A stretch of DNA of 64,000 nucleotides from Escherichia coli (GTDB taxonomy: Bacteria; Pseudomonadota; Gammaproteobacteria; Enterobacterales; Enterobacteriaceae): the NCBI RefSeq assembly GCF_011045215.1, contig NZ_CP049201.1; one strand, written 5' to 3'. The notes under the pieces were generated by a model. The model was not told where the DNA came from and did no database searches. It saw nothing but the letters and a program-made list of their open reading frames with translations. Below, in pieces: positions 2,961 to 60,313 of the stretch (positions are counted from its first letter, which is position 1; the number at the start of each line of letters is the position of its first letter). A program made the translations under genes and the position numbers.

Positions 2961-3030
2961 TTCCCTTGAATTTACATTTTGAAACATCTATAGCGATAAA
3001 TGAAACATCTTAAAAGTTTTAGTATCATAT
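2961..3030 (+). promoter_or_regulatory. ompC promoter, OmpR-P binding region (C1-C3 boxes)
   Basis: TTTACATTTTGAAACATCTA at 2971-2990 followed by further GAAACATCT-like repeats, 120-180 bp upstream of ompC. Confidence 0.75.
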
Positions 3031-3134
3031 TCGTGTTGGATTATTCTGCATTTTTGGGGAGAATGGACTTGCCGACTGATTAATGAGGGTTAATCAGTAT
3101 GCAGTGGCATAAAAAAGCAAATAAAGGCATATAA

Positions 3135-4277
<1,143 letters not shown>

Positions 4278-4295
4278 TCTCGATTGATATCGAAC

Positions 4296-4319
4296 AAAGG
4301 GCCTGCGGGCCCTTTTTTC
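4296..4319 (+). terminator. intrinsic terminator downstream of ompC
   Basis: GC hairpin GGGCCTGCGGGCCC followed by TTTTTT. Confidence 0.8.
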
Positions 4320-4388
4320 ATTGTTTTCAGCGTACAAACACAGTTTTTTGGTGTACTCTTGCGACCGTTCGCATGAGGATAATCACGT

Positions 4389-5444
4389 ATGGAAATAAGC
4401 TTTACCCGCGTGGCACTGCTGGCTGCCGCGCTCTTCTTTGTTGGTTGCGATCAAAAACCACAACCCGCCAAAACCCACGCTACTGAAGTTACCGTTCTTG
4501 AAGGCAAAACCATGGGTACCTTCTGGCGTGCCAGCATCCCGGGCATTGATGCCAAACGCAGTGCCGAACTTAAAGAAAAGATTCAGACCCAGCTGGACGC
4601 CGACGATCAGCTGCTTTCGACCTATAAAAAAGATTCCGCGCTGATGCGCTTTAACGACTCGCAAAGTTTGTCGCCGTGGCCGGTAAGTGAAGCGATGGCC
4701 GATATCGTCACCACCTCGCTGCGCATTGGCGCGAAGACCGATGGCGCGATGGATATAACCGTCGGGCCGCTGGTGAATCTGTGGGGCTTTGGCCCGGAAC
4801 AACAGCCGGTTCAAATTCCGAGCCAGGAACAGATCGATGCGATGAAAGCCAAAACCGGCTTACAGCACCTGACGGTCATTAATCAGTCGCATCAGCAATA
4901 TCTGCAAAAAGACCTGCCGGATTTATATGTCGATCTCTCTACCGTCGGCGAAGGTTATGCGGCGGATCACCTGGCACGCTTGATGGAGCAGGAAGGGATT
5001 TCCCGCTATCTGGTGTCGGTGGGCGGCGCGCTGAACAGCCGTGGTATGAACGGTGAAGGCCTGCCGTGGCGGGTAGCGATTCAAAAACCAACCGATAAAG
5101 AAAACGCGGTTCAGGCTGTGGTGGATATCAACGGTCATGGGATTAGCACCTCTGGCAGCTACCGTAACTATTACGAACTGGACGGCAAACGTCTTTCCCA
5201 TGTTATCGATCCGCAAACCGGGCGTCCCATCGAACACAATCTGGTATCCGTGACGGTGATTGCTCCGACGGCGCTGGAAGCCGATGCCTGGGATACTGGC
5301 TTGATGGTACTCGGGCCGGAGAAAGCCAAAGAGGTTGTTCGCCGGGAAGGGCTGGCGGTTTATATGATCACCAAAGAAGGCGATAGCTTTAAAACCTGGA
5401 TGTCACCACAGTTTAAAAGCTTCCTTGTCAGCGAAAAAAATTAA
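4389..5444 (+). CDS. apbE: FAD:protein FMN transferase lipoprotein ApbE
   Basis: 351-aa ORF with lipoprotein signal (…LFFVGC) and ApbE-like sequence. Confidence 0.9.
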   Translation: MEISFTRVALLAAALFFVGCDQKPQPAKTHATEVTVLEGKTMGTFWRASIPGIDAKRSAELKEKIQTQLDADDQLLSTYKKDSALMRFNDSQSLSPWPVSEAMADIVTTSLRIGAKTDGAMDITVGPLVNLWGFGPEQQPVQIPSQEQIDAMKAKTGLQHLTVINQSHQQYLQKDLPDLYVDLSTVGEGYAADHLARLMEQEGISRYLVSVGGALNSRGMNGEGLPWRVAIQKPTDKENAVQAVVDINGHGISTSGSYRNYYELDGKRLSHVIDPQTGRPIEHNLVSVTVIAPTALEADAWDTGLMVLGPEKAKEVVRREGLAVYMITKEGDSFKTWMSPQFKSFLVSEKN

Positions 5445-10815: not shown

Positions 10816-11195
10816 TGATGTGCCACATCCGGCATGGTATGCCGGATGTGGCGTATGCTGATAAGACGCGCCAGCGTCGCATCAGGCAACCGGCTTGGGT
10901 GTTAGATGTCGGATGCGGCATAACCGACTTATTCGACCTACGGGGTGGAGCACTTCACAGCGGTGTAGGCCTGATAAGACGCGTCAGCGTCGCATCAGGC
11001 AACCGGCTCGGACGTTGGATGTCGGATGCGGCGTAACCGCCTTATCCGACCTACGGGGTGGAGCACTTCACAGCGGTGTAGGCCTGATAACACGCGTCAG
11101 CGTCGCATCAGGCAACCGGCTCGGGCGTTAGATGTCGGATGCGGCGTGACCGCTTTATCCAACCTACGGGGTGCCGCACTTCACGGCAGTTTAGC
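10816..11195. repeat. REP/BIME cluster, about three tandem ~116-bp units
   Basis: Repeated GCCGGATGCGGCG…CTTATCCGACCTACGGGG…CTGATAAGACGCG…CATCAGGCA palindromic units; the overlapping small ORFs in the track are repeat artefacts. Confidence 0.9.
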
Positions 11196-25226: not shown

Positions 25227-27818
25227 ATGCATCAATCTGGTTCTGTTTCTCTTTGTCGTTCCGCAATATCTGTTCTGGTAGCTACAGCGTTATATTCACC
25301 CATAGCATTGGCATCAACAGTTGAGTATGGTGAGACAGTTGATGGTGTTGTCCTGGAAAAAGATATCCAGCTGGTTTATGGGACCGCCAATAATACGAAA
25401 ATCAATCCTGGCGGAGAACAGCATATTAAAGAATTTGGTATAAGTAGTAATACTGAAATTAACGGCGGGTATCAGTACATTGAAATGAATGGCACCGCAG
25501 AATACTCCGTATTAAATGATGGTTATCAAATTGTTCAAATGGGTGGCGCGGCAAACCAGACTACCCTCAATAATGGTGTGCTACAGGTTTATGGCGCAGC
25601 GAATGATCCCACGATTAAAGGCGGGCGCTTAATCGTTGAAAAAGATGGGATTACCGTCCTTGCCGCTATCGAAAAGGGAGGATTACTGGAGGTTAAAGAG
25701 GGGGGATTAGCGATTGCGGTAGATCAGAAAGCAGGCGGTGCTATTAAAGCAACCACGCGGGTCATGGAGGTATTCGGAACAAACCGTCTCGGTCAGTTCG
25801 AAATCAAGAATGGTATTGCTAACAATATGCTGTTGGAAAACGGCGGAAGTTTGCGAGTTGAAGAAAATGACTTCGCTTATAATACTACTGTAGATAGTGG
25901 CGGCTTACTGGAGGTTATGGATGGCGGGACTGCAACTGGCGTTGATAAAAAAGCAGGCGGAAAATTAATTGTCTCAACGAATGCGCTGGAAGTGAGTGGT
26001 ACAAACAGTAAAGGCCAATTTAGTATAAAAGATGGTGTGTCAAAAAATTATGAACTGGATGATGGTTCCGGGCTTATTGTTATGGAGGACACGCAGGCCA
26101 TTGACACTATCCTCGATGAGCATGCCACTATGCAATCGCTGGGAAAGGATACTGGTACGAGAGTGCAGGCAAATGCGGTATATGATCTCGGTCGATCAGA
26201 TCAGAATGGAAGTATAACGTATTCCTCTAAAGCCATCTCTGAAAATATGGTTATCAACAATGGCCGCGCTAACGTCTGGGCTGGCACAATGGTTAACGTG
26301 TCAGTCAGAGGAAATGATGGCATTCTTGAGGTTATGAAGCCGCAAATAAATTATGCACCCGCAATGTTGGTGGGTAAGGTAGTGGTTTCTGAGGGCGCTT
26401 CTTTAAGAACGCATGGTGCCGTGGATACCAGCAAAGCGGATGTTTCGCTCGAAAATAGCGCATGGACCATCATTGCCGATATCACTACGGCGAACCAAAA
26501 CACCCGCCTTAACTTAGCCAACCTTGCGATGTCTGGCGCAAATGTGATTATGATGGATGAGCCAGTGACTCGTTCATCTGTGACGGCAAGTGCGGAAAAT
26601 TTCACTACGTTGACCACCAATACCCTGTCGGGAAACGGCAATTTTTATATGCGTACCGATATGGCGAATCATCAGAGCGATCAGCTCAACGTCACCGGAC
26701 AGGCAACAGGTGATTTCAAAATATTCGTTACGGACACCGGTGCCAGCCCGGCAGCAGGAGATAGCCTTACACTGGTAACGACGGGCGGCGGTGATGCTGC
26801 ATTTACGTTGGGCAATGCCGGAGGCGTTGTTGATATCGGTACGTATGAATATACCTTGCTGGATAATGGCAACCATAGCTGGAGTCTGGCAGAGAATCGC
26901 GCGCAAATTACCCCTTCAACCACTGATGTGCTGAATATGGCGGCAGCACAACCGCTGGTATTTGATGCAGAGCTGGACACCGTGCGTGAGCGTCTTGGTA
27001 GCGTAAAAGGCGTTAGTTACGATACGGCGATGTGGAGTTCGGCAATTAACACCCGCAACAACGTGACCACTGATGCGGGAGCTGGTTTTGAGCAAACATT
27101 GACGGGCCTGACGCTCGGTATCGATAGCCGTTTCTCCCGTGAAGAAAGCAGTACAATTCGCGGCTTGTTCTTTGGTTACTCTCATTCTGATATTGGTTTT
27201 GATCGCGGCGGCAAAGGCAATGTCGATAGCTACACCCTGGGGGCTTATGCCGGTTGGGAGCATCAGAACGGTGCCTATGTTGATGGAGTGGTGAAAGTTG
27301 ACCGTTTTGCCAACACCATCCATGGCAAGATGAGTAATGGGGCAACAGCGTTTGGCGATTACAATAGTAACGGCGCGGGTGCTCATGTTGAGAGCGGGTT
27401 CCGTTGGGTTGACGGATTGTGGAGTGTTAGACCCTATCTCGCCTTTACCGGCTTTACCACAGATGGTCAGGACTACACGTTATCAAACGGCATGCGCGCT
27501 GATGTGGGAAATACCCGGATATTACGCGCTGAAGCGGGAACGGCGGTAAGCTATCACATGGACCTGCAAAACGGTACGACGCTGGAACCCTGGCTGAAAG
27601 CCGCCGTGCGTCAGGAATACGCCGATTCTAACCAGGTGAAAGTTAATGACGATGGCAAATTTAATAATGATGTGGCTGGAACCCGTGGCGTTTATCTGGC
27701 TGGGATAAGGTCATCGTTTACCCCGACGTTAAGCGGTCATTTGTCAGTCAGCTATGGCAATGGCGCAGGGGTAGAATCGCCGTGGAATACCCAGGCTGGT
27801 GTGGTCTGGACGTTCTGA
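25227..27818 (+). CDS. yejO: autotransporter outer membrane protein YejO, apparently intact (863 aa)
   Basis: Signal peptide, passenger domain with internal ~55-aa repeats (GGLLEV..GG.A..VD.KAGG…), C-terminal beta-barrel ending …AGVVWTF. Confidence 0.85.
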   Translation: MHQSGSVSLCRSAISVLVATALYSPIALASTVEYGETVDGVVLEKDIQLVYGTANNTKINPGGEQHIKEFGISSNTEINGGYQYIEMNGTAEYSVLNDGYQIVQMGGAANQTTLNNGVLQVYGAANDPTIKGGRLIVEKDGITVLAAIEKGGLLEVKEGGLAIAVDQKAGGAIKATTRVMEVFGTNRLGQFEIKNGIANNMLLENGGSLRVEENDFAYNTTVDSGGLLEVMDGGTATGVDKKAGGKLIVSTNALEVSGTNSKGQFSIKDGVSKNYELDDGSGLIVMEDTQAIDTILDEHATMQSLGKDTGTRVQANAVYDLGRSDQNGSITYSSKAISENMVINNGRANVWAGTMVNVSVRGNDGILEVMKPQINYAPAMLVGKVVVSEGASLRTHGAVDTSKADVSLENSAWTIIADITTANQNTRLNLANLAMSGANVIMMDEPVTRSSVTASAENFTTLTTNTLSGNGNFYMRTDMANHQSDQLNVTGQATGDFKIFVTDTGASPAAGDSLTLVTTGGGDAAFTLGNAGGVVDIGTYEYTLLDNGNHSWSLAENRAQITPSTTDVLNMAAAQPLVFDAELDTVRERLGSVKGVSYDTAMWSSAINTRNNVTTDAGAGFEQTLTGLTLGIDSRFSREESSTIRGLFFGYSHSDIGFDRGGKGNVDSYTLGAYAGWEHQNGAYVDGVVKVDRFANTIHGKMSNGATAFGDYNSNGAGAHVESGFRWVDGLWSVRPYLAFTGFTTDGQDYTLSNGMRADVGNTRILRAEAGTAVSYHMDLQNGTTLEPWLKAAVRQEYADSNQVKVNDDGKFNNDVAGTRGVYLAGIRSSFTPTLSGHLSVSYGNGAGVESPWNTQAGVVWTF

Positions 27819-31815: not shown

Positions 31816-33576
31816 TTAACCGCGTAATTCGTGCGCCCGACGAAAACGACCTTCGTAATCGAACACTTTTTCACGCACTTGCCAGTACTGACCTTTCATG
31901 CGGGCGACGACAAAATCCGGATGTCGCAGTAAGGCTTGCTGGGCGAGGATATCGGCGGCGGTGATCCAGCGCAGAGGGATGCCCGGTGTGCGCGTATGCG
32001 GGCGGATAAAAAGCTGCTCGAAAGCAGTTCGCTGGGCGGGCGTTTGCAGACGGAAACGCTCACTCACATCCGCGCCGTCTTCATCGTAATAGGTGATTTT
32101 CAACCATTCGCCTTTCTCGTCGTGCCCATGCTGCAAAGACATGCCGCTACAGCGTAATACCAGCGCATCTTTCAGTCGTAGCGCCGCTTTTAACATATCA
32201 TCCGGATCAACCAGTACCGTGTCACATTCGCGGCAGCGGCGAGCGGCAATATCATTTTCCGCGTTACATTGCGGGCAATTTTTAAAACGGAAACGGAAGT
32301 CACACTGTTCGCGATGACCGTCGTCATCTTCAAACCATCCCTGACAGCGGCGACCAAAGTGTTCAATCAATGTCCCGTCGGCGGTCGTTTTCCCCCAAAA
32401 GGTGTTGGCAAAACCGCAGGCAGGGCAGAAAACCTGTACCGGAACGTTGTCACTTTTGCCTTTCGGTGTACCAACTTCCGGCGCGTAGAGATCGTGAGGA
32501 TTACCCGCATAATCAAGGATTAAACAATCAGTCTTGCCCGGAGCGAGACGCAGACCGCGCCCGACAATCTGTTGGTAAAGACTCACTGATTCGGTAGGGC
32601 GCAGAATGGCGATAAGATCGACGTGCGGGGCGTCAAATCCGGTGGTCAGTACTGCGACGTTGACCAGATAGCGAAAACGCTGGGCTTTAAAATCTTCAAT
32701 TAACACATCGCGCTCAGCGCCGGGGGTGTCGCCAGTAATCAGTGCAGCATCTTCGGCGGGTAGTAATCCCACAATCTCTTTTGCGTGTTCAACGGTGGCG
32801 GCGAAAATCATCACCCCTTTGCGCGTTGCAGCAAACTCCATAATCTGGCTGATGATGTGCGGGGTAATACGTTGTTGTTTTTTTAGCTCGCGGTTGAGAT
32901 CGGCTTCGCTGAACAGCCCATTACTCTGTGCCTGCAAGCGGCTGAAATCGTATTGCACTACTGGCATATCCAGTCGTTCTGGCGGCGTCAGATAGCCGTG
33001 TTTAATCATATAACGCAGCGGCAGCTCATAAATGCAGTCACGGAAAAGGGCTTTCTCATCGCCGCGTACCATGCCGTGATAATGGAACTGGTAGATCCAG
33101 CCTTTGCCCAATCGAAAAGGCGTGGCAGTCAGCCCCAGCAGGCGTAAGTGGGGATTCACTTTTGTCAGGTGAGTGAGGATTTGCTGATACTGGCTCTCTT
33201 CATCGTCACCAATACGGTGACATTCATCGACAATCAACAGCGAAAATTCACCCTGAAAGGCATCAAGATTACGGGCGACCGACTGCACGCTGCCAAATAC
33301 CACTTTACCGTGGCTCTCTTTGCGCTTTAGCCCGGCGGCAAAAATATCGGCTTCCAGCCCCAGCGCCTGATACTTTGCATGGTTTTGCGCCACCAGTTCT
33401 TTAACGTGTGCCAGCACCAGTACGCGACCACGAGCCAGCCGTGCCAGTTCCGCTATCACCAGGCTTTTACCTGCGCCGGTGGGCAGCACGATAACGGCAG
33501 GGGTTTTATGACGACGAAAATGGTTGAGCGTGGCATCCACGGCTTCTTGCTGATATGGGCGAAGTGTAAAAATCAT
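31816..33576 (-). CDS. radD: ATP-dependent DNA helicase-like repair protein RadD (YejH)
   Basis: 586-aa ORF with superfamily-2 helicase motifs (Walker A PTGAGKS, DECH box) and C-terminal zinc-finger cysteines. Confidence 0.93.
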
Positions 33577-33725
33577 GGTCTCGCGTAGGTAGATTATTCT
33601 GCTAATAGTATGCCACGGATCTTTTTCCCTTGAGGGATGTTATTAGACCGCTATACTGGGCAGACAACAGTTCAGATTTTCGGGTCATTACCCGACCTCC
33701 GTTTTTTACAGGCAAAATCACACAC

Positions 33726-34421
33726 ATGCGACTTGATAAATTTATCGCACAGCAACTCGGCGTTAGCCGTGCTATTGCCGGGCGTGAAATCCGCGGCAAT
33801 CGTGTCACCGTCGATGGCGAAATCGTCCGTAATGCAGCGTTCAAACTGCTTCCTGAACATGATGTCGCTTACGATGGCAACCCGCTGGCGCAGCAACACG
33901 GTCCACGTTACTTCATGCTCAATAAGCCTCAGGGCTATGTTTGCTCCACGGACGACCCTGATCACCCAACGGTGCTCTATTTTCTTGATGAACCAGTGGC
34001 GTGGAAACTGCACGCCGCAGGGCGGCTGGATATCGATACCACCGGTCTGGTGCTGATGACTGATGATGGTCAGTGGTCGCACCGCATTACTTCTCCGCGC
34101 CATCATTGCGAGAAGACCTATCTGGTGACGCTGGAATCACCCGTAGCTGACGATACGGCAGAGCAATTTGCTAAAGGCGTGCAGCTGCATAACGAAAAAG
34201 ATCTCACTAAGCCGGCGGTGCTGGAAGTGATTACCCCAACGCAGGTTCGTCTGACCATCAGCGAAGGGCGTTATCATCAGGTGAAACGCATGTTCGCCGC
34301 TGTGGGTAACCATGTGGTTGAGCTGCATCGTGAACGTATTGGCGGCATTACGCTGGATGCTGATTTAGCCCCCGGTGAATATCGTCCGTTAACTGAAGAA
34401 GAAATTGCCAGCGTCGCCTAA
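33726..34421 (+). CDS. rsuA: 16S rRNA pseudouridine516 synthase RsuA
   Basis: 231 aa from the ATG at 33726 ([19 protein letters not shown]…); S4 domain plus pseudouridine synthase core. Confidence 0.93.
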
Positions 34422-34448
34422 CTTTTCAATGACTTTCAGGAGCCCGTT

Positions 34449-35639
34449 GTGACCACCCGACAGCATTCGTCGTTTGCTATTGTTTTTATCCTTGGCCTGC
34501 TGGCCATGTTGATGCCGCTGTCGATTGATATGTATCTGCCCGCGCTACCGGTAATTTCAGCGCAGTTTGGCGTACCGGCGGGCAGTACGCAGATGACCCT
34601 CAGTACTTATATTCTGGGCTTTGCGTTGGGGCAGTTAATCTACGGGCCGATGGCAGACAGCTTCGGGCGTAAGCCGGTGGTTCTTGGCGGTACGCTGGTG
34701 TTTGCCGCCGCCGCGGTGGCGTGTGCGTTGGCACAAACCATCGATCAGCTGATTGTGATGCGTTTCTTCCACGGGCTGGCTGCGGCTGCGGCCAGCGTGG
34801 TTATCAACGCTTTGATGCGTGATATCTACCCGAAAGAAGAGTTCTCGCGGATGATGTCGTTTGTCATGCTGGTGACGACCATTGCACCGCTGATGGCACC
34901 GATAGTTGGCGGCTGGGTGCTGGTGTGGCTGAGCTGGCATTACATCTTCTGGATCCTCGCCGTGGCGGCGATTCTGGCTTCGGCAATGATCTTCTTTCTG
35001 ATCAAAGAAACCTTACCACCGGAGCGTCGCCAGCCTTTTCACATTCGTACCACTATTGGTAACTTTGCGGCGCTGTTCCGTCATAAGCGTGTCCTGAGTT
35101 ATATGCTGGCCAGCGGTTTCAGCTTTGCCGGGATGTTCTCGTTCTTAAGCGCCGGACCGTTTGTCTACATTGAAATTAACCACGTCGCGCCGGAAAACTT
35201 TGGTTATTACTTTGCACTAAACATTGTTTTCCTGTTCGTGATGACCATCTTTAATAGCCGCTTCGTCCGCCGTATTGGCGCGTTAAATATGTTCCGCTCG
35301 GGGTTGTGGATACAATTTATTATGGCAGCATGGATGGTCATCAGTGCGCTGCTGGGGCTGGGATTTTGGTCGCTGGTGGTTGGCGTTGCGGCGTTTGTGG
35401 GCTGCGTGTCGATGGTGTCATCCAATGCGATGGCGGTCATTCTTGATGAGTTTCCCCATATGGCGGGAACGGCATCTTCGCTGGCAGGAACCTTCCGTTT
35501 TGGCATAGGGGCAATTGTTGGCGCATTGCTTTCTCTTGCGACCTTTAACTCTGCATGGCCGATGATTTGGTCAATTGCATTCTGCGCAACCAGCTCCATT
35601 CTCTTCTGTCTGTACGCCAGTCGGCCGAAAAAACGGTGA
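34449..35639 (+). CDS. bcr: MFS efflux transporter Bcr (bicyclomycin/sulfonamide resistance)
   Basis: 396-aa 12-[39 protein letters not shown]…. Confidence 0.93.
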
Positions 35640-35650
35640 TCTATTGCACA

Positions 35651-35682
35651 ACGAGGAAGCTAAAAGGCTTCCTTTGTTGATG
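35651..35682 (+). terminator. putative intrinsic terminator downstream of bcr
   Basis: GAGGAAGC-taaaa-GGCTTCCT followed by TTGTTG. Confidence 0.55.
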
Positions 35683-35971
35683 CATGTCAACCACAAATCT
35701 ATCATTCCCCCGATATATGTTTATTTTATGTAAAATCAATTTATGTAAAAAGTCACATCATTGTAGTTAAAAAGGTTGAGTTAGATCGCAGAAACGGGTA
35801 CATATAGCCCCGCAAACGTGACCACGCCCGCAGATATTACTTAAATCAGAGCCATAGAGGCCACGCAGGCGAGGCATCAATCTTTACGATCTGTATAAAG
35901 ACGGATTGTTGATGATGTGTTAAAATTGATGTAAACAAATTGTGAAGTAAATGTGCTTCCGGGGAAAATAA

Positions 35972-36316
35972 GTGACTTCATTACAACTCTCAATCGTCCA
36001 TCGACTGCCGCAGAACTATCGCTGGTCTGCTGGTTTCGCAGGTTCGAAGGTTGAACCGATTCCGCAAAATGGACCGTGCGGTGACAACAGCCTGGTGGCG
36101 CTTAAATTGCTTAGCCCGGATGGTGATAATGCATGGTCGGTGATGTACAAACTAAGCCAGGCGTTAAGCGACATCGAAGTTCCATGTTCGGTGCTGGAGT
36201 GTGAAGGTGAGCCGTGCCTGTTTGTAAATCGCCAGGACGAGTTTGCTGCAACATGCCGATTGAAAAATTTTGGTGTGGCAATTGCCGAACCCTTTTCAAA
36301 CTACAATCCTTTTTAA
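35972..36316 (+). CDS. yejG: uncharacterised protein YejG
   Basis: 114-aa [29 protein letters not shown]…. Confidence 0.85.
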
Positions 36317-36319
36317 GCG

Positions 36320-37909
36320 TCAGCTCAACGCCAGTAGCTGACGCGTATACTCCTGCTGCGGTGTGGCAAACACGCGCGCGCACGGTCCTTGTTCCACTAC
36401 TTCCCCTTGTCGCAGTACGATAACCTGATGACATAACGCGCGGACAACGTGCAAATCGTGGCTGATAAACAAATAGGCCAGTTGATGCTTTTGTTGCAAT
36501 GATTTCAATAGCGTCAATATTTGCGCCTGTACCGTTTTGTCGAGTGATGATGTCGGTTCATCAAGTATGATCAGCGAGGGCTTAAGAATTAATGCCCTGG
36601 CAATCGCAATACGTTGTCGCTGACCACCAGAGAACTCCGCCGGATAACGGTGGCGTGTTTCAGGATCTAATCCCACTTCATGCATCACGGCTATCACTTG
36701 TTGTTCGCGTTGTGCGGCAGAAAGCGTCGGCTGGTGAACCCGTAAGCCTTCCTCAATAATCTGCAAAACGTTGAGTCGTGGGTTGAGCGAGGAGTTTGGA
36801 TCCTGAAATACCACCTGAATGCGATGACGAATAGGTAACAGCTGGCGGCGATTTAAATTTTGCAGTGGCTGACCGTCAAAGATGATGCTGCCCTGAGAAT
36901 TAATCAGTCGCAGCAGCGCCAGTCCCGTCGTGCTTTTCCCGGAACCGGACTCGCCCACTAAACCCAGTGTTTCACCCGCTCGTAGCGTAAAACTGATGTT
37001 TTTCACCACCACATTATGATCCACAATGCGTTTCAAAATCCCTTTGCGAATGGGGAAGGCAACCTGAAGCTGTTCAACATCCAGCAACGTTGAGGCAGGT
37101 TCTGGCAACGGCACTGGATCGCCTGACGGTTCACTGTTGAGTAGCTTTTGTGTGTAAGGATGAGTGGGTGAGGCAAATAGCGTAGCGGCGTAATTTTGCT
37201 CGACACAGCGACCGTTTTGCATTACCGCCACGCGGTGGGCCAGTTTTCTGACAATGCTGAGGTTATGAGTAATAAACAGCATGCCCATATTCAACTCGCC
37301 TTGCAGTTCGCGCAACAGCTGTAAAATCTGCGCCTGGACAGAGACGTCCAGTGCGGTGGTCGGTTCATCGGCAATTAATAATTCCGGTCGCGTTAACAGC
37401 GCCATCGCAATCATCACCCGCTGGCGTTCGCCGCCGGAGAGCTGATGCGGATAATCTGTCAGCCGTTTTGCCGCCTGGCGGATACCAACGCGATCAAGGC
37501 AGTTAAGAATTTCGCCACGAGCCGCTTCCCGACGCATCCCGCGGTGGAGTGAAAGCACTTCATAAAGCTGTTTTTCCAGGGTATGCAATGGATTTAACGA
37601 CACCATCGGCTCTTGAAAAATCATGGCGATCTTATTACCGCGTACACCGCGCAACGTTTGGTCGCTGGCATGAAGCAGCGATTCGCCATGAAAACGAATA
37701 TCGCCGGAGAGATATTCAACCGGCGGGGAAGGGAGCAGGCGTAAAATTGACAGCGCGGTAACGCTTTTGCCTGAACCTGACTCACCCACCAGCGCCAGCG
37801 TTTCGCCAGCCTCAATCTGTAGTGAAACATCATTGACTACTGTACGTACGGTTTGCTGATGGCGAAAACCCACCGACAAATCTTCAATCGCTAACAGAGT
37901 TTGCGTCAT
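36320..37909 (-). CDS. yejF: ABC transporter ATP-binding protein YejF (duplicated ATPase domains)
   Basis: 529 aa from MTQTLLAIEDLSVGF…; two Walker A motifs (GESGSGKS) and two LSGG signatures. Confidence 0.93.
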   Translation of the reverse strand: MTQTLLAIEDLSVGFRHQQTVRTVVNDVSLQIEAGETLALVGESGSGKSVTALSILRLLPSPPVEYLSGDIRFHGESLLHASDQTLRGVRGNKIAMIFQEPMVSLNPLHTLEKQLYEVLSLHRGMRREAARGEILNCLDRVGIRQAAKRLTDYPHQLSGGERQRVMIAMALLTRPELLIADEPTTALDVSVQAQILQLLRELQGELNMGMLFITHNLSIVRKLAHRVAVMQNGRCVEQNYAATLFASPTHPYTQKLLNSEPSGDPVPLPEPASTLLDVEQLQVAFPIRKGILKRIVDHNVVVKNISFTLRAGETLGLVGESGSGKSTTGLALLRLINSQGSIIFDGQPLQNLNRRQLLPIRHRIQVVFQDPNSSLNPRLNVLQIIEEGLRVHQPTLSAAQREQQVIAVMHEVGLDPETRHRYPAEFSGGQRQRIAIARALILKPSLIILDEPTSSLDKTVQAQILTLLKSLQQKHQLAYLFISHDLHVVRALCHQVIVLRQGEVVEQGPCARVFATPQQEYTRQLLALS

Positions 37910-37910
37910 G

Positions 37911-38411
37911 CTACACCGCCTTATTAGGATCAAATGCGTCGCGGACGGCTTCACCAATAAAGATCAGCAAAGACAATAATATCGCCACCGACAAGAAGGC
38001 GGTGATCCCAAGCCACGGAGCCTGAAGGTTATTTTTCCCTTGTAACAGCAGTTCACCGAGTGACGGTGAACCGAGCGGCAGACCGAAGCCGAGGAAATCG
38101 AGTGAGGTCAGGGTGGTGATCGAACTACATAAAATAAACGGTAAAAAAGTGAGGGTAGCGACCATGGCATTTGGCAACATATGACGCAGGATGATACTGC
38201 GATCGCTGACGCCAAGCGCCTGCGCCGCACGAATGTAGTCGAAATTACGGGTACGTAAAAACTCCGCCCGCACCACGCCGACCAGACTCATCCAGCCAAA
38301 CAAGACAGTAATTGCCAGCAGCCACCAGAAGTTAGGCTGTACGACGCTGGAAAGTAAAATAATCAAAAACAGCGTCGGCATCCCCGACCATACTTCAATA
38401 AAGCGTTGCCC
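37911..38411 (-). pseudogene. yejE: yejE remnant: C-terminal ~166 codons of the OppC-like permease YejE; N-terminal ~175 codons absent
   Basis: Minus-strand frame reads …[22 protein letters not shown]…AAQALGVSDRSIILRHMLPNAM…DAFDPNKAV, ending 1 nt before the yejF start; a full OppC-type permease is ~340 aa. Confidence 0.8.
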
Positions 38412-39031
38412 AGGCCGCGTAGAGGGAACAGGTCGAAATAGCTGCCGCCCGCGAAGAAGACAATCAGCAGGATGGCAAACAAAAAGGCCGGAATGGCGTA
38501 GCCGATGATGATAAATGCGCTACTCCAGACGTCAAAGCGGCTCCCATTATAAACAGCTTTGCGAATGCCTAACGGAATCGACACCAGATAGATAATCAGC
38601 GTGCTCCACAATCCGAGGGTGATGGAAACCGGCAGGCTGTCTTTAATCAGCGTCAGCACCGAGGCGCTGCGAAACAGGCTGTCACCAAAATCAAAGCGAA
38701 TGTAGTCCCAAAGCATTTTGAAGTAACGTTCGTGGATCGGCTTATCGAAACCGTAGCGATGGGTGATCTCAGCGATCACTTCTGGATCTAACCCGCGTCC
38801 GCCACGGTAATTACTGTCGCTGATATTGCCGACGCCTGTTTGCGCATGGCTGGCACGAACGCCTTCACCGCCTGCGCCGGGTAATACTCCGGCATTACCA
38901 AACTCAATGGCGGCGATGGCCTGGTCGACCGGACCGCCAGGCGCAATTTGCACGATGAAAAAGTTGATAGTGATAATCGCCCATAACGTTGGGATCACCA
39001 GCAACAGACGGCGAATCAGATAAGCGCCCAT
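38363..39031 (-). pseudogene. yejB: yejB remnant: N-terminal ~207 codons of the OppB-like permease YejB, then a 15-codon out-of-frame tail (…[15 protein letters not shown])
   Basis: ORF starts immediately after the yejA stop ([34 protein letters not shown]…) but stops after 222 codons; a full YejB is ~364 aa. Confidence 0.8.
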
Positions 39032-40852
39032 CTACTCTCCCTGTTGTCTGGCTGACGGCAGTTTGGCCGCTTTATTAACATCATACCACCAGGTATCGAT
39101 ACCCAGACTGTAAACAGGGCGCACAGCGGGTTGGGAGAATTTATCCCACCAGGCGAGACGGTCTTCCGCCATGTACCACATTGGCAGCATGTAATAATTC
39201 CACGTTAATACGCGATCCAGTGCTCGCCCTAACGGCAGTAATTTTTCTTTATTTCCCTGCGCGGCAATAATTTGGTTGATCAGCGAGTCGATAACCGGGC
39301 TTTGCACGCCGGGGGCATTATAAGTGGAATTGATATATTCCGATGACCAGGAAATCTGTAAATCGGAACTGGGCCACGGCATCGCCCGCCATACGCGCGG
39401 CATCATATCATAGTCGCGACTGCGCATGCGGTTGGTGATTTGCGAGTTATCCACCTTGCGAATGTCCATGTTGATACCCAGCCGTTGCAGGCTGTGCTGG
39501 AACGGCAATACCCACTGACTATTGCTGCTTGCAGGAAGCAATAATTCAAAGCTGAGCGGCTGACCCGTAGTGGCATTAACGCGTTGCTGACCTTTCAGCA
39601 CCCAGCCCGCTTCGTTGAGAAGTTTGTCGGCTTTTAACAGGTTGTCACGATCGTAGCCATCGCCTTTCGATACCGGCGGCTGGTAGATTTGTGTGAAGAC
39701 TTCTGACGGTAGATCTTTTTTCATTGGTGCCAGAAGCACCAGCTCCGCGGCGTCAGGGTAATTTCTGGCCGCGTATTCGGTATTCTGAAAATAACTGTTC
39801 GTGCGACTCCAGGCATTGTAAAACAACGCCTTGTTCATCCATTCAAAGTCAAAGGCGAGGGTGATTGCTTCCCGGACCCGGCGATCGCTGAATACCGGAC
39901 GTTGGATATTAAACGCCAGCCAGCGCGTATCCTGGGCTGATTCGTTCTTTTGCTCATCTTTGATGATGTATCTTTTATCGAAATTTTTACCGGTATAACG
40001 CGTGGCCCAGTTTTTAGCGTCGTTTTCCATACGCAAATCAAAGGCACCTGCTTTAAACGCTTCAAAGGCGACATTATCATCGAGGTAATAATCGTAGCGA
40101 ATGGTGTCGAAATTCCAGCGTCCACGGTTTACCGGTAAGTTTGCTGCCCAGTAATCTTTCACGCGGGAATAGACAATATTTTGCCCCATTTTCCAGGACG
40201 TAATGCGGTACGGACCACTGGCAAGCGGAGGCGTGGCGAGCGGATCGCTAAGTTTCTGATCCTTCCAGTACTTTTCTGGAAATACCGGCAGCGAAAACAG
40301 ACTCAACATATCTTCTTTGCCGGGTTTAGCTAACTCAATGCGCACGGTTAACGGCGCAATGGCTTTGACGGTGGTGCCTTTGTAGACCAGACGAAATTGC
40401 GGCACGCCTTCGGTCATAAATTTTTGAAAAGTAAACTCTACATCGCGGGCAGTAATGGGCGAACCATCATGAAAACGGGCGCGCGGATTAATAGCGACCT
40501 CCACCCAGGAATAATCGTCAGCATAGCGTGCACTTTCAGCAATCAGCGGGTAATAACTGCCTGGTTCGTCATCGGAAGTCGTAAATAGCGTGTCGTACAG
40601 CTGCTCGGTGCGTGCGCCCGGGTTGCCGCGCAGTGCATAGCGGTTGAAATTATCGAAGGTACCGAGGGCTGACAACGTTATCTGCCCACCTTTTGGCGCG
40701 GCGGGGTTCACATAATCAAAATGGTTGAAATTAAACGCGTACCGGGGTTCGCCCAGCACGGCAAAGGCATAGCTTTCCTTGATAGCCTGCGCCTGCGCAC
40801 CAAAGGTGAACAGAGCGATAAACAGCAGCAGTATGCGCACAATCATCTGCAA
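39032..40852 (-). CDS. yejA: periplasmic oligopeptide/microcin C-binding protein YejA
   Basis: ~604-606-aa ORF with signal peptide and family-5 solute-binding protein sequence; start may be the ATG two codons downstream (MIVRILLLF…). Confidence 0.93.
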   Translation of the reverse strand: MQMIVRILLLFIALFTFGAQAQAIKESYAFAVLGEPRYAFNFNHFDYVNPAAPKGGQITLSALGTFDNFNRYALRGNPGARTEQLYDTLFTTSDDEPGSYYPLIAESARYADDYSWVEVAINPRARFHDGSPITARDVEFTFQKFMTEGVPQFRLVYKGTTVKAIAPLTVRIELAKPGKEDMLSLFSLPVFPEKYWKDQKLSDPLATPPLASGPYRITSWKMGQNIVYSRVKDYWAANLPVNRGRWNFDTIRYDYYLDDNVAFEAFKAGAFDLRMENDAKNWATRYTGKNFDKRYIIKDEQKNESAQDTRWLAFNIQRPVFSDRRVREAITLAFDFEWMNKALFYNAWSRTNSYFQNTEYAARNYPDAAELVLLAPMKKDLPSEVFTQIYQPPVSKGDGYDRDNLLKADKLLNEAGWVLKGQQRVNATTGQPLSFELLLPASSNSQWVLPFQHSLQRLGINMDIRKVDNSQITNRMRSRDYDMMPRVWRAMPWPSSDLQISWSSEYINSTYNAPGVQSPVIDSLINQIIAAQGNKEKLLPLGRALDRVLTWNYYMLPMWYMAEDRLAWWDKFSQPAVRPVYSLGIDTWWYDVNKAAKLPSARQQGE

Positions 40853-40927
40853 CGGATTTCCTTTTACTCATCATTAGCCGCAATCCGGCATGCTTTCACT
40901 ATGAATAATAAGGGACGTAAGCACACC

Positions 40928-42484
40928 TTACCACTGCGGCGTATACGGTTTCTTCAGCCAGCGGACAAAATCGTCCAGCGGTAACGGGCGACTAATCCAG
41001 TAGCCTTGCATGAAATTAACGCCGCGTTCGCTTAGCCATCGCGCCTGTTCCGGCGTTTCGACCCCTTCAGCAACCGTCAGCATATTGAGGCGTTTCGCCA
41101 GCGTCAGCACCGCGTCAAGTACGGGTGAAGTGATCGTTTCCGTACCGATGGCGTTGATAAATCCACGGTCAATTTTCAGATAATCGAGCGTAAAACGCTC
41201 AAGATAGATAAGCGCGCTGTGCCCGGTGCCGAAGTCATCAATAGCAATTTCTACGCCGACCGAGTGCAGCCAGGCGAAGAGTTGTGTGGCTTCTTGCTCT
41301 TTCAGCATATCGCGCTCGGTAATTTCCAGCACAATCTGGAAATGGTGTGCGGGTAGGGAAGTGAGCAGTTTCTGGATATCTGCTTTAAAGCTTTCGCTGT
41401 GCAGATGGTCCGGCGCAATGTTAATACCAAATTTGACGCCTACCGGCAGCACTTTTTCTAATTCTGCGGCATCGCGGGCAATTAACTCAAACAGGTGCTG
41501 AGTCAGCGGCACAATCATCTTTTGCGATTCGGCAAAGTTAATGAAGGCATCCGGGGGAATTTCTCCCGCGACAGGATGCCGCCAGCGTAGCAGTACTTCC
41601 AGGCCCGTTACTCGCAAAGCTTGTGTATCCACCACCGGTTGATACGCCACGTAAAATTGTTCGCGCTTGATGGCGGTCATAATTTCTCTGCCGGGGCGCA
41701 TACGTACGCTCATCAGGTAATAGCAGAGCAGGCCAACGACAGTTCCACTCATGCCGCCCAGTAAAAATGCGTACCACACATCGTTCCATGTCCAGTCATC
41801 TGCATAAAGCCGAACGGTCAGAGGAATGCCCGCAATTTTAGTTTCACGGACTGGCATGTCGGTTAATTCATTAACGTTCATCAAACGTGAAGAAAAGGTA
41901 GATAGCGCAGTATTGCCAATAATGAGGGCGACGCCATCGTAATCTTCCTGCCGTGAACTATAAAAGAGTGAAGGCGTCAGGTTGAGATTCAGAGCGGCAA
42001 AGACGCCGCTATTTTTCAGCAAAGGGTTGCGATACCAGATGACGATTGCGGGTTTGTTCGGCACCATCGGCGTGCCGGGTAAGATCGCCATATCGACATT
42101 TTTATTAATGTCGAGCGCAGGAATCAATTCATTGAGTGGAATGTCCATCTCACCGGTCGCAGATGAACAGAATGTTTTTTTATCTTTCACCAGCACAAAC
42201 GTACGGACATTCATGCTAAACGCCGCGCGGGCGGTCAGTTCGGGGTTAGCCTGCTGGCAGGTATCTAAGGTCAGCGGCTGAAGCCGGTCAGTAGTGGATT
42301 TCAGGTCGGCAAAATAGGTATCGAGATACTTTTGTACGTCGGTAATCAGTGTGTCGTATTTGACTTCGTGCTTATGCCAGGCCACCAAAAACTGAAGGCA
42401 GCTCACCAGTATCGCAATCATTACGCCTGCAACAATGCAGGTAAGCAGGAGCTTACGTCCAGAATTGGGAGCGCGTATGAACAT
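40928..42484 (-). CDS. pdeN: c-di-GMP phosphodiesterase PdeN (Rtn)
   Basis: 518-aa ORF with N-terminal TM/periplasmic region and C-terminal EAL domain (…EVLLRWRHP…DDFGTGHS…). Confidence 0.93.
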   Translation of the reverse strand: MFIRAPNSGRKLLLTCIVAGVMIAILVSCLQFLVAWHKHEVKYDTLITDVQKYLDTYFADLKSTTDRLQPLTLDTCQQANPELTARAAFSMNVRTFVLVKDKKTFCSSATGEMDIPLNELIPALDINKNVDMAILPGTPMVPNKPAIVIWYRNPLLKNSGVFAALNLNLTPSLFYSSRQEDYDGVALIIGNTALSTFSSRLMNVNELTDMPVRETKIAGIPLTVRLYADDWTWNDVWYAFLLGGMSGTVVGLLCYYLMSVRMRPGREIMTAIKREQFYVAYQPVVDTQALRVTGLEVLLRWRHPVAGEIPPDAFINFAESQKMIVPLTQHLFELIARDAAELEKVLPVGVKFGINIAPDHLHSESFKADIQKLLTSLPAHHFQIVLEITERDMLKEQEATQLFAWLHSVGVEIAIDDFGTGHSALIYLERFTLDYLKIDRGFINAIGTETITSPVLDAVLTLAKRLNMLTVAEGVETPEQARWLSERGVNFMQGYWISRPLPLDDFVRWLKKPYTPQW

Positions 42485-42589
42485 GATTCCGTTAATTTCC
42501 TGAAATTACGACAACATTTAAAAGATAACAATGACCGGACTATAGCCTGGATCAAGACGCGGAAACATCATTTTCTCTGATGAATGAAA

Positions 42590-42622
42590 ACAAAAAAGCA
42601 CTGCCTAAGCAGTGCTTTCAGT
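42590..42622 (-). terminator. intrinsic terminator downstream of mepS
   Basis: Minus strand: GAAAGCACTGCTTAGGCAGTGCTTTTTTG. Confidence 0.8.
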
Positions 42623-42664
42623 TAACTCGTCAGGATAGCCAAGGGATTGCATCCAAACGGTTTA

Positions 42665-43231
42665 TTAGCTGCGGCTGAGAACCCGGCGTGCTTCGTTGTA
42701 ACGCTTCTTCCAGTACGGTTCATTCATGCTGGAAATAATAACACCACTGCTGGTGGAAGCATGGACAAACTGATTGTTGCCGATATAAATACCGACATGG
42801 CGTCCCGTTGAACCGGCACGGAACAGAACTAAATCACCCGTACGCAAATTACTGCGAGAAACAGATTTACCCATTTCCTGCTGTTCGTAAGTCGAACGCG
42901 GAAGTTCTAAGCCAAATTGCTCACGGAATGTACGTTGTACAAAACCAGAACAATCGATACCTTTTTTAGTGCTACCGCCCAGACGATAACGTACGCCTTT
43001 CCAGTCAGCATACTGATCCATAATTCGCGATTTTACGTCGACATTACGAACCAGGTTTTCAAATTCATCCTGAGAAGCTTGCAGTGATGATGTTTCACTA
43101 CCCACTGCACGTGTCTCAGGATGCATATTCTTTGCGGTGTTATTTGCACTACATGCAGAAAGCAGAACCGCTACTGCAATCGCGGGGATCCCGCGCAAGA
43201 TATATCTCAAAATCGGTTGAGATTTGACCAT
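42665..43231 (-). CDS. mepS: peptidoglycan DD-endopeptidase/LD-carboxypeptidase MepS (Spr), NlpC/P60 lipoprotein
   Basis: 188-aa ORF with lipobox (LLSAC) and NlpC/P60 catalytic Cys (…[10 protein letters not shown]…). Confidence 0.95.
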
Positions 43232-43642
43232 GTTGTTTGTTTTCCCTTGAAGTCCTTAACGACAAATATCGTTATAAAAAAATGCCAAGCGACACGAGAC
43301 TAATTACCTGGGCATGTTGAAACAATTCCTTAAGGCCAAATCTGTGGACTAACGCACAAAATTATATGCTGTGAGGATAATCTACCGCCGAGGCAAAACG
43401 AGTTCGAGATTACCCGATTGGTGCGGTCTTGGCGAGCGGTTTTACATGATTTTTTATAAGAAAAAGTGATACAGAAAGTTAATAAGCGGGATTGGTCAAT
43501 TAAAGTACGATTGAGTGAAATGCATGCAATCCATTCATTTACTTAGAGAATGATTTTTGCGTTCGATGGATGAAAGCACGGTGCGCATCATCAGGATTAT
43601 CCTCACTATAAAAATAAACCTGATGATGTTAATTACTGTGAG

Positions 43643-44356
43643 TTATTTGTTTTGGAAATGTTTGTTTTTTCCCGGTAGTGATTTGTCAAAAAAGGTGATT
43701 AATCGATCACTTAATGGCGTCAGCAACACCCAGGGCAAACCGATCAATATCACGGTCATCGAACCGACAATGATGTCAGTAAACCAGTGTGCGCCAATCA
43801 TTACTCTGGGAAACGCAAAAACCACAAAAATAATAAGGGCGATAAGACCTGCAACTTTGCCGAAATAACGCCACATGAATGCCGAAAAAATAAGCAGCAT
43901 CATGCCGTGATCGCCGGGAAAGCTATCTCGTGAGGCATCTTTCGTGGGGACAGAGAGCAGTTCGCTGACGCGGTTAATATCGGCAAAAGTCAATGTTGGG
44001 CTGGCCCGTTTTACAGGAATTAATGCCTGACCCAGCTGGTTTAATACCACTGCAGTTAATAGCATGACCAGACCAATAATCACGATACGTCGTCTGCCTG
44101 GGGCGTTTTCTTTCAGCCAGAAACTCAGCATCAACATACCCATCGCCAGCAGTGAACAACCGTCGAAGGCGCGATTGTTGGTCAATGCAACCAGCCACAA
44201 AAAGGCCTTACTTTCGACCAGTTTCTGATTAAAGAAATAAAAAATATCCGCATCAATCGGCAACCAGAATCCATGATTAACGGGAATATACCAGGAAAGA
44301 AACAGCGCGAGGCCGACAATATTCAACAACACTATTTGCGGCAAATTTTTAATCAT
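43643..44356 (-). CDS. lpxT: lipid A 1-diphosphate synthase LpxT (YeiU)
   Basis: 237 aa from the ATG at 44354-44356 (MIKNLPQIVLLNIVGLALF…); PAP2 membrane phosphatase family. Confidence 0.9.
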   Translation of the reverse strand: MIKNLPQIVLLNIVGLALFLSWYIPVNHGFWLPIDADIFYFFNQKLVESKAFLWLVALTNNRAFDGCSLLAMGMLMLSFWLKENAPGRRRIVIIGLVMLLTAVVLNQLGQALIPVKRASPTLTFADINRVSELLSVPTKDASRDSFPGDHGMMLLIFSAFMWRYFGKVAGLIALIIFVVFAFPRVMIGAHWFTDIIVGSMTVILIGLPWVLLTPLSDRLITFFDKSLPGKNKHFQNK

Positions 44357-44394
44357 ATTTTCTCTAATTATCTTACTGAAAAACGCAGGCAACC

Positions 44395-45381
44395 TTACGC
44401 GGTAGTCGCTAAACGAAGCTTCAACAGCGCGCTCTGCAAAGCATTCCAGTCAGCTTCGCTGCTGGAAATCAGCTCAATACGACTGTCCGGTGGCGCAACG
44501 TTTTGCGTTTCAATGTGCAGGTCATCGCCCTGACGGTTGATTCGCACCAGCCCTTCGGGAATACGCAGCACGCCTTTGACGCGCTCCACCGGTGCAAGTC
44601 GCGCCCATTCCAGAATGCCAATGGTGTCGAATACCGTATCAGCGTCGAATATCCAGCCGCAGGCCTGATGTCCTTGTCCACTGTTCAGACTGCGACGCCA
44701 GCGTTGATGCTCTGGCAGGCTTAACGCTGCTAACCCTTTTTTCACGACATGCTGATGAGAATGCGCGGCGCTGGCGGGCAACTCGGCTAAATTGCGACGC
44801 GGCAAATCCAGAAGATGACCGTCAACTTTCCCATGCTCACTGTGAATTAATTGCCGATCGCCACCATTTTGCTGCCACCAGCGCTGTAGCGCTTGCTCGC
44901 TTTCAGGTGTCGCACGGTCGGATTTATTGGCGACAATGATGTCTGCGGCAGCCAGCTGGTCACGGAAGTTTTCATTGCTGGCGCTTTTTTCGTCCAGCAG
45001 CAGGCGTGGATCGAGAATGCACAACGTGGCGCGTAGATCTATCCACGGTTCATAGACTGGTGCGGTTAAGAGATCGAGGATCTGTTTCGGATGGCCCAGC
45101 CCGGTCGGCTCTATCAACAAGCGGTCTGGTTTTCCCTGACGCAGTAAGGTATTCAACCCTACCTGCATGGGTAAACCATTAACGCAGCACATGCAGCCGC
45201 CGGGGATCTCTTTCAGCAGTGCGCCGCTATCGGCGAGCAAAGCACCATCAATTCCGACTTCCCCAAATTCATTAACCAGTACCGCCCATTTTTCGTTGGG
45301 ATCTTTATGGGCTAACAGATGAAGAATCGACGTGGTTTTCCCGCTGCCGAGAAAACCGGTGATGAGGTTGGTCCTGGTCAC
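44395..45381 (-). CDS. yeiR: zinc-binding GTPase YeiR (CobW/COG0523 family)
   Basis: 328-aa ORF with P-loop GFLGSGKTT and CxCC motif (GGCMCCV). Confidence 0.9.
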   Translation of the reverse strand: MTRTNLITGFLGSGKTTSILHLLAHKDPNEKWAVLVNEFGEVGIDGALLADSGALLKEIPGGCMCCVNGLPMQVGLNTLLRQGKPDRLLIEPTGLGHPKQILDLLTAPVYEPWIDLRATLCILDPRLLLDEKSASNENFRDQLAAADIIVANKSDRATPESEQALQRWWQQNGGDRQLIHSEHGKVDGHLLDLPRRNLAELPASAAHSHQHVVKKGLAALSLPEHQRWRRSLNSGQGHQACGWIFDADTVFDTIGILEWARLAPVERVKGVLRIPEGLVRINRQGDDLHIETQNVAPPDSRIELISSSEADWNALQSALLKLRLATTA

Positions 45382-55875: not shown

Positions 55876-57126
55876 ATGGACATAATGAGAAGTGTTGTGG
55901 GGATGGTGGTGTTACTGGCAATAGCATTTCTGTTGTCGGTAAATAAAAAGAGCATCAGTTTGCGCACGGTTGGAGCCGCACTGCTGCTGCAAATCGCTAT
56001 TGGTGGCATCATGCTCTATTTTCCGCCGGGAAAATGGGCTGTAGAACAGGCGGCATTAGGCGTTCATAAAGTGATGTCTTACAGTGATGCCGGTAGCGCC
56101 TTCATTTTTGGTTCGCTGGTCGGGCCGAAAATGGATGTCCTCTTTGACGGTGCGGGTTTTATCTTCGCCTTTCGCGTACTCCCGGCGATTATCTTCGCCA
56201 CTGCGCTCATTAGTCTGCTGTACTACATTGGCGTGATGGGGCTGCTGATTCGCATCCTTGGCAGCATTTTCCAGAAAGCCCTCAACATCAGCAAAATCGA
56301 ATCTTTTGTTGCGGTTACCACTATTTTCCTCGGGCAAAATGAGATCCCGGCGATCGTTAAACCGTTTATCGATCGCATGAATCGCAACGAGTTGTTTACC
56401 GCAATTTGTAGCGGGATGGCGTCCATTGCGGGTTCGATGATGATTGGTTATGCCGGAATGGGCGTACCAATTGACTACCTGTTGGCGGCATCGCTGATGG
56501 CGATCCCCGGCGGTATTTTGTTTGCACGTATTCTTAGTCCGGCAACCGAGCCTTCGCAGGTCACATTTGAAAATCTGTCGTTCAGTGAAACGCCGCCAAA
56601 AAGCTTTATCGAAGCGGCGGCGAGCGGTGCGATGACCGGGTTGAAAATCGCCGCCGGTGTGGCGACGGTGGTAATGGCGTTTGTCGCAATTATTGCGCTG
56701 ATTAATGGCATTATCGGCGGAATTGGCGGCTGGTTTGGTTTTACCAATGCTTCTCTGGAAAGTATTTTTGGCTATGTGCTGGCACCGCTGGCGTGGATCA
56801 TGGGTGTGGACTGGAGTGATGCCAACCTTGCGGGTAGCCTGATTGGGCAGAAACTGGCGATTAACGAATTCGTCGCTTACCTGAGTTTCTCCCCATACCT
56901 GCAAACGGGCGGTACGCTGGAAGTGAAAACCATTGCGATTATCTCCTTTGCGCTTTGTGGTTTTGCTAACTTTGGTTCTATCGGTGTTGTCGTTGGGGCA
57001 TTTTCGGCTATTTCGCCAAAACGTGCACCGGAAATCGCTCAGCTTGGTTTACGGGCGCTGGCAGCAGCAACGCTTTCCAACCTGATGAGCGCGACCATTG
57101 CCGGGTTCTTTATTGGTTTAGCTTGA
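55876..57126 (+). CDS. psuT: NupC-family nucleoside transporter PsuT (YeiM)
   Basis: 416-aa polytopic ORF; paralogue of nupX at 59063. Confidence 0.9.
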   Translation: MDIMRSVVGMVVLLAIAFLLSVNKKSISLRTVGAALLLQIAIGGIMLYFPPGKWAVEQAALGVHKVMSYSDAGSAFIFGSLVGPKMDVLFDGAGFIFAFRVLPAIIFATALISLLYYIGVMGLLIRILGSIFQKALNISKIESFVAVTTIFLGQNEIPAIVKPFIDRMNRNELFTAICSGMASIAGSMMIGYAGMGVPIDYLLAASLMAIPGGILFARILSPATEPSQVTFENLSFSETPPKSFIEAAASGAMTGLKIAAGVATVVMAFVAIIALINGIIGGIGGWFGFTNASLESIFGYVLAPLAWIMGVDWSDANLAGSLIGQKLAINEFVAYLSFSPYLQTGGTLEVKTIAIISFALCGFANFGSIGVVVGAFSAISPKRAPEIAQLGLRALAAATLSNLMSATIAGFFIGLA

Positions 57127-59062: not shown

Positions 59063-60313
59063 ATGGATGTCATGAGAAGTGTTCTGGGAATGGTGGTATT
59101 GCTGACGATTGCGTTTTTACTGTCAGTAAACAAGAAGAAGATCAGCCTGCGTACCGTTGGCGCGGCGTTAGTGTTACAGGTCGTGATTGGCGGCATTATG
59201 CTTTGGTTACCGCCAGGGCGTTGGGTCGCTGAAAAAGTCGCTTTTGGCGTGCATAAAGTGATGGCGTACAGCGACGCGGGTAGCGCATTTATCTTCGGTT
59301 CTCTGGTCGGACCGAAAATGGACACCTTATTTGATGGCGCAGGATTTATCTTTGGTTTCAGAGTATTACCGGCAATTATCTTCGTCACCGCGCTGGTGAG
59401 TATTCTCTATTACATCGGTGTGATGGGGATCTTAATTCGCATTCTCGGCGGTATCTTCCAGAAAGCATTAAATATCAGCAAGATCGAGTCATTCGTCGCG
59501 GTCACTACCATTTTCCTCGGGCAAAACGAAATTCCGGCAATCGTCAAACCCTTTATCGATCGGCTGAATCGCAATGAATTATTTACAGCGATTTGTAGTG
59601 GCATGGCCTCAATTGCCGGTTCGACAATGATTGGTTACGCCGCACTGGGCGTACCTGTGGAATATTTGCTGGCGGCATCGTTAATGGCGATCCCAGGCGG
59701 GATCTTGTTTGCCCGCCTGTTAAGCCCGGCTACGGAATCTTCGCAGGTTTCTTTTAATAACCTCTCTTTCACCGAAACACCGCCAAAAAGCATTATTGAA
59801 GCCGCCGCGACAGGGGCAATGACCGGGCTGAAAATCGCTGCGGGTGTGGCAACAGTGGTGATGGCATTTGTTGCCATCATTGCGTTAATTAACGGTATTA
59901 TCGGCGGCGTTGGCGGCTGGTTTGGTTTTGAACATGCCTCGCTGGAGTCCATTTTAGGTTATCTGCTGGCCCCACTGGCGTGGGTAATGGGTGTTGACTG
60001 GACTGATGCGAATCTTGCCGGGAGTTTGATTGGACAGAAACTGGCAATAAATGAATTTGTCGCTTATCTCAATTTCTCACCCTATCTGCAAACGGCTGGC
60101 ACTCTGGATGCTAAAACCGTGGCGATTATTTCCTTCGCGTTGTGCGGTTTCGCTAACTTTGGTTCTATCGGGGTGGTGGTGGGGGCGTTTTCTGCGGTTG
60201 CGCCACACCGTGCGCCGGAAATCGCCCAGCTTGGTTTACGCGCGCTGGCGGCGGCGACACTTTCTAACCTGATGAGTGCCACCATTGCCGGGTTCTTTAT
60301 TGGTTTAGCGTAG
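59063..60313 (+). CDS. nupX: NupC-family nucleoside transporter NupX (YeiJ)
   Basis: 416-aa ORF, highly similar along its length to psuT. Confidence 0.9.
   Translation: MDVMRSVLGMVVLLTIAFLLSVNKKKISLRTVGAALVLQVVIGGIMLWLPPGRWVAEKVAFGVHKVMAYSDAGSAFIFGSLVGPKMDTLFDGAGFIFGFRVLPAIIFVTALVSILYYIGVMGILIRILGGIFQKALNISKIESFVAVTTIFLGQNEIPAIVKPFIDRLNRNELFTAICSGMASIAGSTMIGYAALGVPVEYLLAASLMAIPGGILFARLLSPATESSQVSFNNLSFTETPPKSIIEAAATGAMTGLKIAAGVATVVMAFVAIIALINGIIGGVGGWFGFEHASLESILGYLLAPLAWVMGVDWTDANLAGSLIGQKLAINEFVAYLNFSPYLQTAGTLDAKTVAIISFALCGFANFGSIGVVVGAFSAVAPHRAPEIAQLGLRALAAATLSNLMSATIAGFFIGLA

Follow-up and report, generated by a model that had tools for sequence, protein, structure and literature searches.

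Can an Escherichia coli isolate still assemble the peptide importer YejABEF when the interval that should hold both of its permease genes is only 1,121 bp long? The transporter combines a binding protein (YejA) with two membrane subunits (YejB and YejE) and an ATPase (YejF). The window (the whole 64-kb stretch of DNA analysed here) retains the gene order pdeN-yejA-yejB-yejE-yejF-yejG-bcr, with the yejABEF operon in its usual order between pdeN and yejG. Both outer genes of the operon are intact, in line with a preliminary description of this DNA. yejA (39032-40846, minus strand, 604 codons), encoding the periplasmic peptide-binding protein, is full-length, gap-free and without internal stops; it has 98.95% nucleotide identity to the allele of genome PapM-32-1, with 4 amino acid differences, and its product has an SBP_bac_5 Pfam match in the Logan gene call. 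yejF (36320-37909, minus strand, 529 codons), encoding the double-NBD ATPase, is likewise full-length and free of stops, with 99.4% identity to the reference and 2 amino acid differences. The short interval between these genes, which the preliminary description had singled out, is real: the yejB start and the yejE stop are 1,121 bp apart in the window and 2,120 bp apart in E. coli FDAARGOS_943.

A single 999-bp gap spans yejB and yejE

The FDAARGOS_943 locus (L001; yejB 1970-3064, yejE 3064-4089) served as the reference for a pairwise BLAST comparison. The query (2,001 bp over the locus) matched in two pieces, with query 1-1091 corresponding to reference 1501-2591 and query 1090-2001 to reference 3589-4500. 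As the preliminary description had expected, there is a single gap; it measures exactly 999 bp, and the two pieces overlap by 2 nt (GG), the sole microhomology found. The missing DNA is L001 2592-3590 (±2). The same query splits into two pieces across 3,000 bp in every complete E. coli genome among the matches listed, and the window is otherwise collinear with both PapM-32-1 and FDAARGOS_943. The junction lies on the minus strand at 38410-38411, with the break at 38410/38411 and the GG common to both breakpoints. A clean deletion near 38409-38414 had been proposed earlier, and its position and cleanness stand, whereas its size, then put at about 996 bp, is 999 bp.

In synteny, and at 98-99.5% nucleotide identity, the locus resembles the known E. 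coli yejABEF, an ABC importer for microcin C and peptides (Novikova et al. 2007, as cited in PMC10924461). What it lacks is a stretch of 999 bp reaching from the 3′ part of yejB into the 5′ part of yejE; in this it departs structurally from 5,422 of 5,426 complete genomes, which is not a chance pattern. We consider it very probable that one E. coli isolate genuinely lost these 999 bp from its chromosome, recently and spontaneously, leaving a Yej-null transporter.

Origin of the junction

Comparison of the junction sequence revealed no extra bases, IS element, scar or foreign DNA, which upholds the earlier description of the junction on this point. No direct or inverted repeats were found at either breakpoint, either in the ancestral sequence or among repeat families, and repeats or hairpins joining the ends were accordingly rejected as a cause. 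At the 999-bp offset the breakpoint ends are 27% identical, which is the random level. Unequal crossover between the paralogous permease genes was discarded on the basis of this value and of the non-equivalent domain positions of the breakpoints, which fall at YejB residue 207, ~56 residues into the domain, and at YejE residue 175, ~18 residues in. A synonymous CAA/CAG difference sits 4 nt from the junction and was considered as a possible repair-made mutation; however, a 60-bp stretch of the right flank is 100% identical to 318 genomes, so the difference is an ordinary polymorphism. Genomes that match both junction flanks at 100% include E. coli RM9872 and E2865.

Microhomology-mediated deletions, that is, illegitimate and repeat-independent ones, were defined by a clean junction, 0-10 bp of shared sequence and the absence of long direct repeats, IS elements or a site-specific scar. 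The window's junction fits this definition, with 2 bp shared and no long repeats, IS or scar. The deletion would have arisen by illegitimate, repeat-independent end-joining or by slippage on the 2-bp GG microhomology, and would have taken YejB codons 208-364 together with YejE codons 1-175.

What remains of YejB and YejE

The chimeric, truncated yejB′ open reading frame in the ORF list (38363-39031, minus strand) encodes 222 amino acids and ends in a TGA stop at 38363-38365. It comprises 207 native codons (38411-39031, minus strand), followed by 15 out-of-frame codons read from yejE sequence and the stop, exactly as the preliminary description had it. The deletion truncates yejB despite being a multiple of three, because yejB and yejE, which overlap by one base, are read in different frames. 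The yejE remnant (37911-38411, minus strand) retains codons 176-341 in another frame and runs to the normal stop at 37911-37913, in agreement with the ~166 terminal codons reported before. Neither remnant reaches the curated score cut-off of its protein family. The YejB remnant scores 430.6 bits against NCBIfam NF011712, below the cut-off of 445 and over profile positions 1-209 of 364 (full-length reference YejB, 793.3 bits over 1-364), and the YejE remnant scores 368.6 bits against NF011596, below the cut-off of 439 and over positions 176-341 of 341 (reference YejE, 778.3 bits over 1-341). The YejB product of the window is a truncated YejB derivative and not a functional member of the family.

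The losses fall in the membrane domains. The Pfam domain BPD_transp_1 lies at YejB 152-359, and 56 of its ~208 residues are left in yejB′; three-quarters of the YejB membrane domain are gone, along with the EAA-like coupling loop at residues 261-282, and residues 1-207 hold three hydrophobic segments (TM1-3). On YejE, Pfam places the OppC_N TM1 at 12-44 and BPD_transp_1 at 158-338. Loss of residues 1-175 removes the former and the beginning of the latter, and the tail keeps its EAA-like loop at residues 235-257. A conserved EAA consensus characterizes binding-protein-dependent ABC permeases, and the EAA loop docks the ATPase. A complete BPD_transp_1 domain (PF00528) with its EAA loop is not found in both subunits here.

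The yejE remnant has no start codon of its own. Its sole in-frame ATG, at 38381, opens a 156-amino-acid ORF, and inspection of the sequence upstream of this ATG found no properly spaced Shine-Dalgarno motif, as GGTCGGGG directly abuts it. The preliminary description had also asked whether functional YejB and YejE might naturally be this short. YejB residues 75-360 can be aligned with OppB and DppB, homologues of solved structure, which makes full length the norm, not short functional forms. Judged from these features of the sequence, yejB and yejE are both pseudogenes in this isolate. They have hardly changed otherwise: relative to the references, the YejB remnant shows 12-13 nucleotide and 0-1 amino acid differences, and the YejE remnant 3-4 nucleotide and 0 amino acid differences. 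This lack of amino acid decay points to a recent event.

Predicted loss of Yej-dependent uptake

Neither transmembrane subunit of YejABEF appears makeable, as YejB′ would consist of TM1-3 without an EAA loop and the YejE tail lacks a start signal. The transporter would consequently be null despite the intact yejA and yejF, a phenotype predicted from the 64-kb window. The last translated codon lies 453 nt from yejF, which is downstream, and this untranslated stretch may exert polarity on yejF. A scan of the junction for newly created terminators or promoters gave counts within the shuffled expectation.

Loss of the transporter would abolish Yej-dependent peptide uptake and thereby protect the strain against microcin C and related Trojan-horse peptide antibiotics. 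According to Novikova et al. (2007), as cited in PMC10924461, removing any single yej gene out of the four leads to microcin C resistance, and by analogy with these single-gene knock-outs the strain is probably microcin C-resistant. Resistance to Trojan-horse inhibitors usually, or almost exclusively, arises through transporter loss; such mutants appear at 1e-4 to 1e-5 under selection with Trojan-horse antibiotics, and loss of YejABEF can lower virulence (PMC8323819). The allele is like the laboratory yejB and yejE knock-outs and the microcin C-selected transposon mutants in that a Yej membrane subunit is lost and the same phenotype is expected. It differs from them in being spontaneous, scarless and natural and in hitting both permease genes at once, and its phenotype is a prediction. 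No inner-membrane route for microcin C other than YejABEF is known in E. coli, and the transporter is also being considered for delivering Trojan-horse peptide conjugates. For this isolate the practical outcome is a predicted resistance and two pseudogenes to annotate, and it raises no new biological question.

Alternative explanations for the allele

The preliminary description had cautioned that an assembly collapse could produce the same picture, the strain in reality carrying full-length yejB and yejE. Mis-joins can occur in short-read draft assemblies, but a collapse requires repeats, and the breakpoints share only GG within sequence that matches at the random level. The Logan assembly of SRR11014969 also contains the exact 222-amino-acid chimeric product, on contig 22 (45,193 bp), the one record of it among 153 billion gene positions. 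On this contig the locus is 100% identical to window 32363-45031, and the contig is unbranched over its 45 kb; had a mixed or alternative path existed, a de Bruijn contig would normally have ended at the junction. The reads behind the Logan contig may be those from which the window was assembled, in which case the agreement speaks to the assembler and not to the biology of the culture. Because there are no repeats to collapse on and a different assembler, working from the raw run, arrived at the identical junction, a collapse is now unlikely, and there is very little chance that the junction is an artefact of any kind. Deliberate construction of a knock-out strain is still harder to credit: the clean junction without foreign DNA is what engineering might leave, but neither an FRT site nor another scar is present, the deletion ends inside both genes without keeping the frame or following any designed boundary, and the background is wild-type-like, with no complete genome above 99.5% identity to it, and not that of a laboratory strain.

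A real deletion could instead have arisen outside a natural population, during laboratory storage or passage or under selection by a Yej-imported compound. A single sequenced isolate carries the allele, the undecayed remnants place the event very recently, and selection with Trojan-horse antibiotics yields transporter-loss mutants at 1e-4 to 1e-5 (PMC8323819). There is no direct counter-evidence to such an origin, and the unbranched contig indicates that the allele was fixed in the sequenced culture; we regard a laboratory origin as rather unlikely. A different objection accepts the deletion and disputes its effect, proposing that YejB′ (TM1-3) and a YejE fragment initiated at ATG 38381 join YejF in a permease that works fully or in part. 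The 156-amino-acid ORF does have a BPD_transp_1 match, TM segments and the YejE EAA-like loop (235-257). Importers of this class, however, use a pair of complete membrane subunits (B together with C/E), the arrangement seen in the solved Opp and Dpp complexes, and the two fragments could build one hybrid domain at most. The internal ATG also lacks a properly spaced Shine-Dalgarno motif, and deleting yejB or yejE alone is enough to abolish microcin C uptake, according to PMC10924461. Residual transport is extremely improbable on these grounds. The reading we retain is a genuine deletion that leaves the isolate Yej-null.

Rarity of the deletion and other natural yej lesions

The missing 999 bp are present (≥80% coverage) in 5,422 of 5,426 complete E. 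coli genomes; this DNA is core, and large losses from it are very rare. Such retention fits a fitness cost of losing it. A 100-bp probe across the junction reached at least 80% coverage in 1 of the 5,426 genomes, razor3, which carries a different event; the window's own junction is absent from all 5,426, and the junction 32-mer has no match in GTDB species representatives or JGI metagenomes. Known from a single sequenced isolate, the allele is an ordinary, strain-private loss of function in a well-studied operon.

The razor3 lesion (NZ_CP176051.1) resembles that of the window in being a clean yejB-yejE deletion, independently acquired, with a right end at L001 3598/3599, 10 bp from the 3589-3591 of the window. 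It differs in removing 640 bp (L001 2959-3598), in having its left end at L001 2958 and in being in frame. The resulting fusion joins YejB 1-329 to YejE from residue 179, for a total of 492 amino acids (L003 2430-3908), and is annotated by PGAP as YejB. A GGGGG run in yejE adjoins the right-breakpoint region shared by the two strains. Their proximity could be a coincidence (roughly 2% by chance) or reflect a weak hot spot.

A third case, E. coli 47258 (NZ_CM135147.1), likewise represents a natural loss of Yej permease function with an intact yejF, but by a larger deletion directly downstream of pdeN in which yejA, yejB and the 5′ part of yejE are gone. What is left is a 612-bp yejE-tail pseudogene (L011 4947-5611) and the intact yejF. 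Natural null alleles show that transporter-loss resistance exists in the wild, very rarely. Because two independent deletions, this one and that of razor3, have ends no more than 10 bp apart, the region of yejE codons 176-179 might be imagined as a deletion hot spot, with the loss itself adaptive under gut or environmental selection by microcin C-like Trojan-horse antibiotics; this combined proposal is distinctly doubtful.

Two recurrent protein products were also considered, and both were set aside. Truncated YejB looked frequent in a 90% cluster (for example P0010, 199 amino acids, 90 contigs), a possible sign of recurrent inactivation, but such entries are mainly contig-end artefacts, as in four of the five places listed. 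The 156-amino-acid YejE-tail protein, found on 442 contigs, fails as a deletion marker, as gene callers yield it from fragmented or frameshifted assemblies. We note that many of the Logan contigs from unrelated runs (L005-L008) stop at about nt 599 of yejB, giving the recurrent 199-amino-acid P0010; this reflects a break in the assembly graph, not a lesion.

The remainder of the 64-kb window

The other 57 genes compared across the window are intact, without an internal stop or frameshift, and no IS element was found within the 64 kb. Shigella-like genome decay and IS activity were rejected on this basis as the setting of the deletion; the yej lesion is isolated and not part of genome-wide decay. 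The nearest complete genome, PapM-32-1, is collinear from rcsD to yeiE at 99.2-99.5% identity. Within this background, the yejB 5′ remnant (97.9%) and yejA (98.95%), together 38410-40846, are more diverged from PapM-32-1 than their neighbours (99.4-100%), and the differences are almost all synonymous. This divergence points to an old patch of recombination with no connection to the deletion.

Several further loci differ from other E. coli or are otherwise distinctive. The autotransporter gene yejO (25227-27818, plus strand) is full-length at 2,592 nt and has no internal stop; in K-12 it is presumably an IS-disrupted pseudogene. ompC (3150-4277, plus strand) is 92% identical to the allele of the nearest genome, with 44 gap positions and an open frame, and this divergence is typical surface-loop hypervariability. 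The mqo-eco intergenic region contains a tandem array (10858-11184; 2.9 copies of a 113-bp unit, 92% matches) that looks like a REP/BIME-type repeat cluster, and its copy number appears to differ from that in PapM-32-1. The nucleoside transporter paralogues psuT and nupX (55876-57126 and 59063-60313), which lie 3 kb apart, share 78.7% DNA identity and are both intact.
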